Virus record (IMG/VR): IMGVR_UViG_3300028797_000007 | Span: 32,001 to 96,000 of that record | DNA: 64,000 nucleotides | From: a virus | Taxonomy: Duplodnaviria; Caudoviricetes | Reading direction: 5' to 3' (one strand) | Shown: piece by piece, positions 46,309 to 63,019 of the stretch | Position numbering within the stretch: the stretch's first letter is position 1 | How the letters are laid out: each line of letters begins with the position of its first letter | Translations under genes and position numbers: made by a program | The notes under the pieces: generated by a model | Told to the model about the DNA's origin: nothing | What the model saw: the letters and a program-made list of their open reading frames with translations, nothing else | Database searches by the model: none

Positions 46309-46915
46309 TTTATGCTCTTTGAAAAATAAAAGTATATGGTAGTCTTCCTACTAAGGTATTACATAAGATGAACTTCAGTCACCAGAGAGTTAAATGCCTC
46401 ATAAAGGAGCTACCTTTATTTCTACTTAACCCACACAAATGTGCCGGAGCTGGATGGGATTGGTACCCATTACTTTCACTTGTAATTTAGGCAATTTTGA
46501 TACCGCAATCAACGCCCTTGTCGCAGTCTTAAGCTACTCGCACTATCTTCCGTGTCTTATACCCATATTACTATGGTTCAGCTGCGACACTCGCTTATTG
46601 GTAATTCAGCTTCCCCTCTTGCCCACCACAGGCAGTGGTTCCACAGTCTCTCTCTTAAATATGGGGCTACCCATACCTAAGCCGTCAAGATGACGAGCGA
46701 CTGGAAGATATACTTTATCCACAATATATAATCCCCACAATCTACTTTCTTTTCAACCTATTAAAGTCGTCTTGTTATTTAGTTGCCTAAATAACCGTCT
46801 CCATCCATTGCTAAGTCTCCCAAGCAACTAAGAAGGGGCTGTAGATTTCCACCCCCTGACTACAATCAGGGTTTTTCAAGTGGTTCATACAATTTTATTT
46901 TTCAAAGAGCATAAA
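46309..46915 (-). ncRNA. Large structured ncRNA, ROOL-like (about 600 nt)
   Basis: Perfect 23-bp terminal inverted repeat; GC-elevated non-coding interior with many hairpins; size and tRNA-cluster context fit ROOL; family resemblance is from memory only. Confidence 0.45.
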
Positions 46916-51148: not shown

Positions 51149-51392
51149 ATATATAAAAACGGCATTTTGAATAGTAATATTGTATCTTAGGTCAAGTAGA
51201 TTTTCTCCGTGAATTACAGTCCGTTACCAGAGCTGCGCTTTCGCTTCAAAATTACGACATGGGGTCACCCCTCATATAACTTGATTACCACTTAGTATAC
51301 ACTTTAATCTATCAAAATTAACGCTCCGGACTGTTTCAGTAGTTAGCTAAACCGAGTTTCCTCACCGGAATGACGCGCCGTTACTATCAAAA

Positions 51393-55417: not shown

Positions 55418-55513
55418 TGGCAGGGGCTATAGGATTCGAACCCATACCCCGGGCTTTGGAGACCCGTCTTTACGGTTTTGAAGACCGCTGTGCTACCATT
55501 ACACTAAGCCCCT
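55418..55513 (-). tRNA. tRNA-Trp with two anticodon arms: UCA (reads UGA) and CCA
   Basis: AGGGGCT TA GTGT-AATGGTA-GCAC A GCGGT-CTTCAAA-ACCGT AAAGA CGGGT-CTCCAAA-GCCCG GGGT ATGGG-TTCGAAT-CCTAT AGCCCCT G CCA. Confidence 0.85.
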
Positions 55514-59888: not shown

Positions 59889-60558
59889 TTGACAAATGGT
59901 ATTTAGAAATATTATAATAATAATGTAAAATGAATTTGACGATTATGTCGAGGAAATGCGATGTAACCGTTGTATAAAATGACAAAGTTTCAATTAAGGA
60001 GCTATAGGAATATTTTAGGACAAATGTATACAGCTCAAGGGCCGAGGTACTATGGAATAAAGGACGCCTTTAGAAGAATTTGAGAAATTAAAACATTTAG
60101 GTTTTTAGAAAAAAGTCGTCAGGTCTAATCAGCCTTAAACGATTTAAGGAGATTAACCAATAAACTTATTATGTATAAATGAATAATATGGTGTATATTT
60201 ATAGTAATATAAATAAGGCATTTATATTCCCTGCGAAGTTAGTAGGGCACATTTCTGATAAAACATAACGCTTAATAAGTTTAAATAATCTAACGGGAGA
60301 AAGAAACTTCCAAGAAAAATATCACGCATTTAGTAGATATGTAAATTAAATATGGCCTGACATATTTAAAGGACATACCATCGGCTGTGAAACTTATGGC
60401 TTGCGTTTTGAGTTAAATTGAGACAGACTGTCTCGACTATAAGTGCCAGCTCGGTTGATAGTTTAATAGGAAAAACATTAATATGTAGGTTCGAATCCTA
60501 CTCATCCTAAATGTCTTTTTGTTTTAATAGGGAGACTTTAGTTTCCCCTTTTATTTAT

Positions 60559-60635: not shown

Positions 60636-61140
60636 AATTTAGCTATATACACAGACGTGTGTGATATAAGGTTACAACTGGGACCAAACTACCAGTGATG
60701 CCCTGATGCAGGCTAAATTGAATGCATCGGCCTATTATGGGGATGTTTCGGTTTCGACAGGAACTAACGAACACTCATGAAACAAGTCGCAGGTATGCGT
60801 TAAATCCAAACCTAAAAAAATAAATGGAAACATTTTTTCTAAAATCGCTAACAGAGTAAAATCTGTTTTCACTGCAAATGCAGTTGCTTTAGCATAGTCT
60901 AAGGCGTAGGCGACTTTCATATGAGTAGTCAGGAAGTGGACAGACAAAAATATGAATGTATTAACTTAGCAAGGTCCACCAATATTGAGATTTCCTAAAA
61001 CAATTTCTCTATTGATTTACTAAAAGTTTTAGGCTACCCCCAAGATTTGTTAATTGGGTAGGGTAAGTAGATAGAACGAAATTAACTAAGCTTGTAAGAA
61101 AGTAATGACTAGTAAATTGGTTTTTGGACACGAGTTCGAT

Positions 61141-61814
61141 TAACTATAGTCGACCTAATAAGTAATTATTAGTGGAAAAGTAAACTCAAGACGGTGAAGG
61201 CTAAGTCGTAAGATATGCTAACGCTGCGCTAAACCTATTGGAAACAATGGGGGAACGCCCAGAGACTCAGAGAACACCTAAGGATTTAATCTATGGTGTC
61301 GCTCGGATGGAAAAAACGATATTCAAAATCTCTTTTATGTGCTTTCATTTCATCGGTATATTTACCATTTCTTGGTGTTAAGTTATTATATTCATTAACA
61401 AGAAGATTTGCTCGATATACTTTTGAAGGTTCAAGCATAAAAGGAAGCACTTTAGGTAAAAGATTTAAAACCTTATTACCAACTAAAGTCCAGTGCCAAC
61501 TTTGTTTATGATTTTCTTTGTAAACTTTGTTGGATACTATGGTTCCTCCAAAGTGAGATTTTAAATATTCTAAAAAAGAATAAGTTGTGCTAGTTACTGA
61601 CAATGTTGGATAACGGAATTCATTATAACTATGTATTTTAGTTAAGGTAATTGTCCCTTCTCCATCAATTATTCCAGCTGTGTAAGCATACATTATTTGA
61701 TTTTCCATAAATGTTTACCTCCTATATTTGGAATAGGGTTATATATCCCTCTATTCTAATAGTATATAGGATGAAGGAATAGTCCAAACTTTTATGAAAA
61801 TAGAAGATTATTTG
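61141..61814 (+). mobile_element. Group I intron in the tmRNA T-loop
   Basis: Exon ends in U, paired to G of the IGS (TCGAT/GTCGA); R element CAGAGACT; S element GAATAGTCC; terminal G at 61814. Confidence 0.85.
61286..61708 (-). CDS. LAGLIDADG homing endonuclease, antisense within the intron
   Basis: YAYTAGIIDGEGTI motif; own AGGAGG RBS. Confidence 0.85.
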   Translation of the reverse strand: MENQIMYAYTAGIIDGEGTITLTKIHSYNEFRYPTLSVTSTTYSFLEYLKSHFGGTIVSNKVYKENHKQSWHWTLVGNKVLNLLPKVLPFMLEPSKVYRANLLVNEYNNLTPRNGKYTDEMKAHKRDFEYRFFHPSDTID

Positions 61815-62032
61815 TCTCGTCATCTCCACCATATGCCCTGAGCAGTTTTTAGAGTTGAATGGGGGCAGAACCCATAGGGGCACCTAATAAGAAAGGCTCT
61901 GACAGTGTGAGTGAATTACGCTGTCTCACTTAAATGGAAAGCTTTCAACCTGATTTGGTCAGGCTGGGGTTGTTATGAAACAATGCTGTTAGAGCTTAAC
62001 TTTTTAGACAGCGTAAAGAAAGAGGCGATATT

Positions 62033-63019
62033 ATGAGAACTTTATATAAGTATTTTGTATTTAGCGATGTACATGGCGAATATGATGCTCTTATAAGAAG
62101 TTTGGAAGAAGCAGGTTATGAAAGAAATAATCCTACTCATAAATTAGTTAGTTTAGGAGATGAATTTGATAGAGGACCTGATAGTCGTAAAATATATAAT
62201 TTTTTAATACAAAATCATGCCATATGTGTTAAAGGTAATCATGATGTTATGTTTCAAGAGTATCTAGAAAAAGGTATGGATGGAGAATTTGTATTATTTA
62301 ATATATTACATAACGGATTAGGTGAAACAATTAAAAGTTTTACTGGTTTGCTGGACAAACAATTTAGTATAGAAACTTTACAAAAGGCAAGAGTAAGTGT
62401 ACAAAGTAGAGATAGCGTTCTTCGTTGGCTACAAAATAAACCTTTGTTTTATGAAACAGATACATTTATCTTTGTCCATGCTGGTATTAATCCAAAATTA
62501 AGAGATTGGAAAGATACTGATGAACACTATGCACTTTGGGATATAGAAGATAGCCATAAGAGCTGTCCTAATGTAGGTAACAAAGTTGTTGTTATAGGGC
62601 ATCATCATGCTTTTAGAGTAAGACAAAATGGTCTAGAAAATGGGAATGGTGACCCAGATTTAAGCCAAATAGATATGCATACGAATAGTCGTGATGAAAA
62701 TGGTAATTATCACTATTTCAAATTACATTCTTATGGTAACACTGATGAAAATCGTCCTTATGTAGGAGGAAATAAAATAGCTATCGATGGCTGTACTAAT
62801 TTAACTAAAAAGGTAAATGTTTTAGTTGTAGAAGATTATGAAAAAGAAGACCCTAAACCAGAAAAAGAGCCATCACCTGAGCAAGGCCCTAATGAACCTC
62901 ATATAACAGTAACACAAAATGGATACACAATAAACATGGAACCTCAATGGTATAACTATGTAGATATGGGAACTACAGCAGCAGGTGGAGTATATACTAC
63001 TACAACTGGTAGAATATAG
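62033..63019 (+). CDS. Metallophosphoesterase (calcineurin-like)
   Basis: SDVHG, GDEFDRG, GNHD, VHAG, GHHH, IDG. Confidence 0.9.
   Translation: MRTLYKYFVFSDVHGEYDALIRSLEEAGYERNNPTHKLVSLGDEFDRGPDSRKIYNFLIQNHAICVKGNHDVMFQEYLEKGMDGEFVLFNILHNGLGETIKSFTGLLDKQFSIETLQKARVSVQSRDSVLRWLQNKPLFYETDTFIFVHAGINPKLRDWKDTDEHYALWDIEDSHKSCPNVGNKVVVIGHHHAFRVRQNGLENGNGDPDLSQIDMHTNSRDENGNYHYFKLHSYGNTDENRPYVGGNKIAIDGCTNLTKKVNVLVVEDYEKEDPKPEKEPSPEQGPNEPHITVTQNGYTINMEPQWYNYVDMGTTAAGGVYTTTTGRI

Follow-up and report, generated by a model that had tools for sequence, protein, structure and literature searches.

A phage tmRNA gene split in its T-loop by a group I intron with an antisense LAGLIDADG gene

We describe a transfer-messenger RNA (tmRNA) gene, ssrA, interrupted in its T-loop by a group I intron, in a 64,000-nucleotide stretch of phage DNA (the window) that comprises bases 32001-96000 of the 111,499-bp IMG/VR virus record IMGVR_UViG_3300028797_000007. 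The record has direct terminal repeats and is complete by rating, and the window carries phage genes (portal, terminase, virion proteins) and 24 tRNAs found by ARAGORN. The locus is very probably a phage ssrA of the known "intron form", split by an IA-type group I intron homologous to bacterial tmRNA introns; the intron would self-splice, and the nuclease encoded antisense within it would drive homing. An earlier reading of the bare sequence (the original prediction) had put the gene at 60739-61831, which is its total extent, and every element is found where that reading placed it. The parts of the gene are listed here with what identifies each. R1 and R2 are two covariance models of tmRNA introns, L170 and L171 are related viral contigs with an uninterrupted tmRNA, and L087 is a related contig with the same intron, all described below.

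60739..61140, plus strand: tmRNA exon 1, with the 5' acceptor strand, the D-like element GGTTTCGAC, the tag frame, the pseudoknot region, the 5' T-stem and six of the seven T-loop bases (Rfam RF00023; ARAGORN after splicing; end-to-end alignment with L170 and L171)
60826..60897, plus strand: tag reading frame for GNIFSKIANRVKSVFTANAVALA, with GGA after UAA-AU as its resume codon and TAG as its stop (ARAGORN; the Rfam alignment puts GGA at the consensus resume codon)
61141..61814, plus strand: group I intron, 674 nt long, that separates T-loop bases 6 and 7, preceded by U and ending in G (splicing in silico; models R1 and R2; alignment; empty-site alleles)
61286..61708, minus strand: homing endonuclease gene of 140 amino acids with a single LAGLIDADG motif, YTAGIIDGEG (open reading frame; homologues; predicted structure)
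61718..61723, minus strand: Shine-Dalgarno sequence AGGAGG, 9 nt before the nuclease ATG (sequence; identical in L087)
61815..61831, plus strand: tmRNA exon 2 of 17 nt, with the last T-loop base T, the 3' T-stem CTCGT, the acceptor strand CATCTCC, the discriminator A and CCA (sequence; ARAGORN; alignment with L170 and L171)

Exons, intron borders and empty-site alleles

ARAGORN calls no tmRNA on the unspliced DNA, and when 60739-61140 and 61815-61831 are joined in silico it reports a 419-nt tmRNA with tag GNIFSKIANRVKSVFTANAVALA. The T arm ACGAG/TTCGATT/CTCGT exists only after 61141-61814 are deleted, so that GTTCGAT joins TCTCGT; this bears out the original prediction of a 674-nt T-loop intron whose removal restores a T arm and an alanine acceptor. 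The acceptor stem has 7 bp (GGGGATG, starting at 60739, with CATCTCC), a G3:U70 pair, a discriminator A and an encoded CCA, and the 3' end lies at 61831. The D-like element near the 5' end fits the GGnTTCGAC type. The tag ends in ...ANAVALA, a hydrophobic and Ala-rich tail as in tmRNA tags. A shorter reading from GCT gives ANRVKSVFTANAVALA, and a GCT-type start is the one that ARAGORN chooses in L170 and L171; the resume codon may thus be either GGA or GCT. The Rfam tmRNA model (RF00023) reaches 47.6 bits for a threshold of 47, aligned to 60747-61142, with the 3' T-stem and acceptor strand outside the match.

A blastn search with 60700-61900 gives no matches amongst GenBank phages, and the exact 23-mer from the tmRNA 5' end is absent from IMG/VR. 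We found relatives of the locus through the phosphatase gene just downstream of the tmRNA (62033-63019). Two of them, L170 (118 kb) and L171, keep the gene order of the window (tRNA-Met, tmRNA, phosphatase, tRNA-Trp) and have uninterrupted tmRNAs, 401 and 424 nt long by ARAGORN and scoring 110 and 84 bits with the Rfam tmRNA model, and the intron model has no matches in either. The spliced window RNA aligns with both from the first G to the CCA at 62-70% identity, and the T arm runs continuously through the proposed junction. These intron-less alleles in the same gene order therefore fix the borders of the intron.

A further relative is L087, a contig of 120 kb from the bin of a metagenome-assembled genome; its flanks are syntenic with the window, and it carries the same intron with the same antisense gene. 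In the comparison of window and L087, identity is 92% and 96% for the two halves of the ribozyme, 61% for the tmRNA exons and about 40% for the flanks. The T-stem shows a compensatory change (ACGAG/CTCGT in the window, AGGGG/CCCCT in L087). For the nuclease gene, the ratio of nonsynonymous to synonymous divergence (dN/dS) is 0.11 at a synonymous divergence (dS) of 0.83. The conserved ribozyme halves together with this low ratio at high dS place both protein and ribozyme under strong constraint, and this constraint, although indirect, is the best available sign that both probably still work. Three other contigs that share a 17-mer with L087 (L167-L169) carry no tmRNA, tRNA or intron signal, and we discarded them as chance matches.

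The ribozyme fold and its relation to bacterial tmRNA introns

The intron has a full group I core fold, and its two ends match the models R1 and R2, so its assignment to group I, already made in the original prediction, holds. All helices listed here are on the plus strand.

61136..61153: P1, exon TCGAU (61136-61140) with guide GUCGA (61149-61153), U.G at the splice site, 5/5 pairs (base-by-base check)
61155..61272: ribozyme 5' half, P2 to the P7 5' strand (model R1; helix check; minimum-energy folds)
61155-61172: P2, with a GUAA loop (helix check)
61180-61185 with 61713-61718: P3, 5' and 3' strands, 6/6 pairs, spanning the 423-nt gene (anchor-and-offset search)
61190-61196 with 61222-61227: P4 (helix check)
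61199-61219: P5 and P5a, with a GUAA loop (helix check)
61228-61258: P6 and P6a, with a GAAA loop (helix check)
about 61259-61272: R-like element CCCAGAGACTCA
61262-61267 with 61781-61785: P7, 5' strand with a bulged A, and 3' strand (helix check)
61270..61304: P7.1 hairpin, whose 3' strand and loop are also, in antisense, the last codons of the nuclease gene (helix check)
61307..61708: P7.2, stem AUGGAAAA (61307-61314) with UUUUCCAU (61701-61708), 8/8 pairs, the loop holding the nuclease gene
61713..61814: ribozyme 3' part, with the P3 3' strand, P8, the P7 3' strand, P9.0, P9 and the terminal G at 61814 (model R2; helix check)
61720-61771: P8, long form (comparison with other introns that carry a homing endonuclease gene)
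about 61773-61785: S-like element GAAGGAATAGTCC
61786-61788 with 61811-61813: P9.0
61789-61806: P9, with a GAAA loop

Checked base by base, all core helices are intact, and minimum-energy folds of the sub-domains return the same helices. P7.1 and P7.2 lie between P7 and the P3 3' strand, a placement that marks subgroup IA in the established classification. We aligned 37 distinct tmRNA introns from loci collected through relatives of the embedded nuclease, most of them at ssrA genes. Over both ribozyme halves, this alignment shows homology between the window intron and those of bacterial tmRNA genes. The guide motif AGTCGCC is kept across the family, a UAG/CUA pairing in P7.1 of the relatives is GAG/CUC in the window, and the introns without an open reading frame (ORF-less introns) have a short hairpin in place of P7.2. 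In 36 of the 37 introns P3 forms 6/6 pairs at a constant spacing from an AUAA anchor, with compensatory variants such as GTAAAC/GTTTAC (window), GAGAGC/GCTCTC, GATGGC/GCCATC, GGGTGT/ACACCC and CGGAGC/GCTCCG. For 28 ORF-less bacterial introns, RNAalifold identifies compensatory changes in P2, P4, P5, P5a, P6, P6a and P8. P7 shows a swap between subgroups: G-C across a bulged A in introns that carry a homing endonuclease gene (HEG-type), U-A across a bulged C in the ORF-less ones.

Three alternative placements were rejected. In a one-piece MAFFT alignment, HEG-type and ORF-less introns were wrongly matched over the P3 3' strand and P8, and P3 was tested by an anchor-and-offset search. A helix that RNAalifold proposes in the 5' half, between the internal guide and the P7 strand, is an artefact of omitting the exon and the 3' half. 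Model R2 itself draws a local hairpin at 61753-61771 as P8; we prefer the longer P8 on the evidence of the other HEG-type introns.

The models R1 and R2 were trained on the 28 ORF-less bacterial tmRNA introns, with the phage and all HEG-bearing sequences excluded. R1 has a sole match in the 64-kb window, at 61140-61272 (32.4 bits, E-value 6.6e-7, full model length), and R2 a sole significant one, at 61743-61814 (23.4 bits, E-value 1.5e-4, full length), which ends on the terminal G. Two independent covariance models and intron-less alleles at the same locus put the intron call far beyond chance.

Four observations weigh against this reading of the locus. First, the original prediction had named the Rfam tmRNA and group I models as a check, and only the tmRNA model passes its threshold: Intron_gpI scores 24.2, 19.3 and 20.5 bits, all under its 50-bit gathering threshold. 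We attribute these low scores to the gene insert of about 400 nt, which splits the core, and to a model that has zero bacterial introns in its seed (bioRxiv 10.1101/2020.01.27.920355); they are the reason why we built the family-specific half models R1 and R2, which do match. Second, R1 scores are lowest for the window (32 bits) and L087 (38 bits), compared with 59-85 bits in the other HEG-type introns, so these two form the most divergent lineage amongst the HEG-type introns scored. Third, Pfam LAGLIDADG_1 gives the nuclease 21.4 bits for a curated cut-off of 23.1 (E-value 4.8e-4). Fourth, a sigma-70 scan of the minus strand finds no sigma-70-like promoter ahead of the nuclease gene; by eye, the upstream regions offer weak motifs only, none of them conserved in the window.

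The nuclease gene and its antisense orientation

The nuclease gene lies antisense between the R-like and S-like elements and has its own ribosome-binding site, as the original prediction had it. It is open under the standard code and contains no TGA. It has 426 homologues, and many relatives in its cluster are annotated PF00961 in a precomputed table. All 17 of 17 invariant family residues are present, YxAGxxDGEG included, and residues D15, G16, E17 and G18 are invariant in 38 homologues. The AlphaFold model (predicted local distance difference test score, pLDDT, 94.7) has an alpha-beta-beta-alpha-beta-beta-alpha fold, for which Foldseek returns I-CvuI, I-CreI and I-MsoI as best folds with probability 1.0 and template modelling (TM) scores of 0.65-0.72. 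Judged by this predicted structure, the nuclease is an I-CreI-type single-domain LAGLIDADG protein. In PHROGs it matches phrog_5046 (E-value 2e-22), labelled "HNH endonuclease"; the label is misleading, as the protein is clearly LAGLIDADG.

The two ends of the gene overlap the ribozyme. The Shine-Dalgarno sequence, read as CCUCCU on the plus strand, coincides with the junction of the P3 3' strand and P8, and the start codon is within the P7.2 3' strand. At its other end, the nine final codons (..FHPSDTID) are antisense to the P7.2 5' strand and to P7.1. Free-standing relatives of the nuclease end in ..FF(x)L and have no such tail, so the tail looks like read-through into ribozyme sequence.

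In our proposal, ssrA would be transcribed from the plus strand, and the intron would fold from P1 to P9 with P7.1 and P7.2 and would excise itself by two guanosine-initiated transesterifications. Exon ligation would complete the T arm and the acceptor stem for alanine, with G3:U70 and the encoded CCA, of a 419-nt tmRNA that would work with host SmpB. Use of host SmpB is presumed because the phage encodes no SmpB gene; the host protein is the usual partner of phage tmRNAs. The 140-aa nuclease, made from its own strong ribosome-binding site, would act as a homodimer, by analogy with I-CreI, and would cleave ssrA alleles that lack the intron, at the nearly palindromic DNA of the T arm. Repair from the intron-bearing copy would then spread the intron, for instance into co-infecting phages like L170 and L171.

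In the fetched loci, all of which have the nuclease gene on the plus strand, we read the arrangement of gene and intron from the R1 and R2 matches around it.

Nuclease gene inside the intron, antisense: 21 loci, plus L087 and L099 with one half model (Gammaproteobacteria, Chloroflexota, Bacteroidota and others, and viral contig L009)
ORF-less intron-form ssrA, with the nuclease gene about 40 nt past the tmRNA 3' end and convergent: about 33 loci (Clostridium, Bacillus and allies)
Nuclease gene downstream of ssrA and co-directional: 6 loci (Steroidobacteraceae and others)

None of the fetched loci has a sense-oriented nuclease gene inside the intron. As all 21-23 intron-borne copies are antisense, the layout is a rule of the family rather than a peculiarity of this phage. 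This uniformity fits a selected orientation and a single ancestral insertion equally well.

We give about an even chance to the explanation that the orientation is historical: the gene inserted once into the P7.2 loop, and the intron-gene unit has been inherited and spread whole, the orientation having no special regulatory role. The HEG-type introns form one recognisable subgroup, with GGAUGGAAGAA/UCUUCCAUAA P7.2 stems, an extended P8, the AGAGACU/AGUCC type of P7 and the FFHPS tail. These shared traits point to common descent, so the 21-23 antisense cases are not independent events, and the antisense layout may simply be inherited. Moreover, a homodimeric nuclease gene with its own signals works either way round. 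However, the free-standing copies near ssrA are also mostly convergent (about 33, versus 6 co-directional, in bacteria), a bias that hints at a wider avoidance of co-transcription with ssrA, and sense-oriented intron-borne copies number zero in the fetched loci.

That the antisense placement was selected is possible, if somewhat unlikely. On this explanation, which the original prediction had offered in outline, nuclease expression would be kept apart from the ssrA promoter, which is very strong, and splicing would be modulated by transcription of the antisense strand or by RNA pairing. The same uniformity inside introns and bias amongst free-standing copies speak for this explanation, as does the complementarity of the nuclease ribosome-binding site and start codon to the P3 3' strand/P8 junction and the P7.2 strand, through which an mRNA of the antisense gene would base-pair with parts of the ribozyme core. 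However, the gene lacks a promoter-like site in the sigma-70 scan mentioned above, descent can explain the uniform orientation, and sense-oriented nuclease genes do well in other structural-RNA introns: the I-CreI gene in its 23S rRNA intron is sense-oriented and works well.

We think it improbable that the reading frame no longer encodes a nuclease, being instead a maturase that aids ribozyme folding, or a decaying remnant, in an intron that is only vertically inherited. Some LAGLIDADG proteins are maturases (I-AniI and bI3), and the dS of 0.83 relative to L087 makes it less likely that a transfer between the two phages was very recent. However, dN/dS is low, the invariant residues are retained, the acidic residue of the motif among them, the presence or absence of the intron varies amongst syntenic phages in the pattern of homing, and the fold is nearest to active homodimeric nucleases. 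A dead tmRNA, with the intron unspliced and the phage left without a working tmRNA, would agree with the missing phage SmpB gene and is very improbable, given that host SmpB is the customary partner, that the ribozyme halves are 92-96% conserved while synonymous sites of the embedded gene are near saturation, that every core helix is intact, and that the exons retain G3:U70, compensatory T-stem changes and an open tag frame.

Returning to a spliced tmRNA and an active homing nuclease, a wider scenario is conceivable, although we consider it doubtful. The intron and nuclease would be more than passengers: the nuclease would cut the intron-less ssrA of co-infecting sister phages (such as L170 and L171), and possibly the ssrA of the host, giving the intron-bearing phage marker exclusion; tRNA-rich phages would have carried the intron family into ssrA of about 21 bacterial phyla; and the free-standing Clostridium and Bacillus copies would be an earlier stage of collaborative homing. 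By analogy, a free-standing nuclease next to an ORF-less ssrA intron does look like a "collaborative homing" arrangement, of which we found no description at ssrA in the literature.

Three other observations concern these relatives. A hairpin terminator lies between the free-standing gene and the tmRNA 3' end in L100, L106, L109, L114, L116, L118, L122 and others. In four Chloroflexota loci (L097, L104, L117 and L119), a HEG-type intron with an antisense gene sits at another T-loop subsite, after GGGTT or GGGTTC, and this difference indicates that the intron-gene unit moved between neighbouring subsites; these loci match a minor T-loop subsite reported for Anaerolineae (PMC11915505). A 115-kb viral contig with a tRNA array, L010, has at 2064-2880 a complete intron-less tmRNA with an unusual T-loop, TGCGACT where the window has TTCGATT, which could be a cleavage-resistant site. 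The tmRNA is followed by a free-standing nuclease copy on the same strand with an in-frame TAG, either a pseudogene or a gene of a TAG-recoded phage. We rejected L010 as a sense-oriented intron-borne copy, since it is a complete standard tmRNA and then a free-standing gene.

Neighbouring elements, significance and known systems

Upstream of the tmRNA, the window has a 58-nt tRNA-like element at 60452-60509 on the plus strand, with acceptor, D and T arms and without an anticodon arm (Rfam tRNA, 39.4 bits). A terminator-like hairpin (60530-60547) comes just after it, and the element is also kept upstream of the tmRNA in L087. The phage tRNA array includes a partial match, to the 3' part of OLE RNA, at 51164-51318 on the minus strand (model positions 437-594 of 616, 102.5 bits), which is odd, as the known OLE RNAs are otherwise those of anaerobic and extremophilic Firmicutes. 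A full-length ROOL RNA is found at 46319-46907 on the minus strand (186.8 bits, model positions 1-574). ARAGORN also reports a 96-nt tRNA with anticodon TCA ("SeC") at 55418-55513 on the minus strand.

The locus is real, well delimited and functional by every indirect test available, and it belongs to a described class of elements rather than to a new kind, so that the basic picture is unchanged. What is new is the phage host, the ends of the nuclease gene that overlap ribozyme helices, and, in about 33 Clostridium and Bacillus genomes, the nuclease copies that stand free next to ssrA. Standard annotation misses the gene, with nothing from ARAGORN and a borderline partial match from Rfam; because annotation is blind to the split gene, phage tmRNA genes of the intron form are probably under-counted. 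The phage copy and its intron-less sister alleles offer a natural donor and recipient pair for tests of homing at ssrA, and a phage-borne copy is a plausible route for the wide and patchy spread of tmRNA introns amongst bacteria. The antisense or convergent placement across the family and the overlap of the start and tail of the gene with helices are concrete, testable features.

The original prediction had called T-loop group I introns in tmRNA known but rare. Known they are, but not rare: a 2025 survey (PMC11915505) collects 883 unique intron-form tmRNAs from 21 phyla, with insertions at four T-loop subsites, nearly all of them at position 7, following a U at -1 and ending in G. The survey reports 36 introns with LAGLIDADG genes (19 of the first 23 in the P7.1 region), and all introns are shorter than 700 nt. 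The arrangement in the window is thus less novel than the original prediction implied, as tmRNA introns that hold a homing endonuclease gene in the P7.1 region are already on record. The phylum table of the survey holds bacteria and archaea only, and gene orientation is absent from its main text. In a limited literature search, by which absence is not proven, we came across no report of an intron-form tmRNA in a phage. Like that class, the window intron interrupts the T-loop at internucleotide position 7, the U at -1 pairs with G in P1, and the intron ends in G; its ribozyme core is homologous to those of bacterial tmRNA introns (R1 and R2), its LAGLIDADG gene is in the P7.1/P7.2 region, and its 674 nt are within the range below 700 nt. 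Unlike that class, it resides in a complete phage genome, and it is the most divergent HEG-type member scored.

The nuclease is like I-CreI, I-MsoI and I-CvuI in having one LAGLIDADG domain (about 140-165 amino acids) of the same fold (TM about 0.7) and in having its gene within a group I intron that interrupts a structural RNA. By analogy with the I-CreI group, its target would be near-palindromic and would span the intron insertion point. Those three are homodimeric and encoded in organellar 23S rRNA introns; the window nuclease has about 20% identity to them, its gene lies antisense to the host RNA and has ends that overlap ribozyme helices, and the presumed target is the ssrA T arm.

Antisense homing endonuclease genes are also known in nuclear rDNA group I introns, such as those at L2066 (PMC9548176), where, as in the window, the nuclease gene is opposite to both the intron and the host structural RNA gene. 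Unlike the window gene, which has a Shine-Dalgarno sequence and is in a phage, the L2066 genes are of the His-Cys box family, eukaryotic and nuclear, with Pol II signals and spliceosomal introns.

The arrangement in the relatives has a parallel in F-CphI: in the roughly 33 Clostridium and Bacillus genomes, relatives of the window nuclease are free-standing genes next to an ssrA with an ORF-less intron. F-CphI is reportedly (Zeng, Bonocora and Shub, in 2009) a free-standing nuclease beside the psbA intron of cyanophage S-PM2 that takes part in collaborative homing with that ORF-less intron. Unlike F-CphI, the window gene is inside the intron, which would make it the fused stage of the same pair if a collaborative mechanism operates at ssrA.

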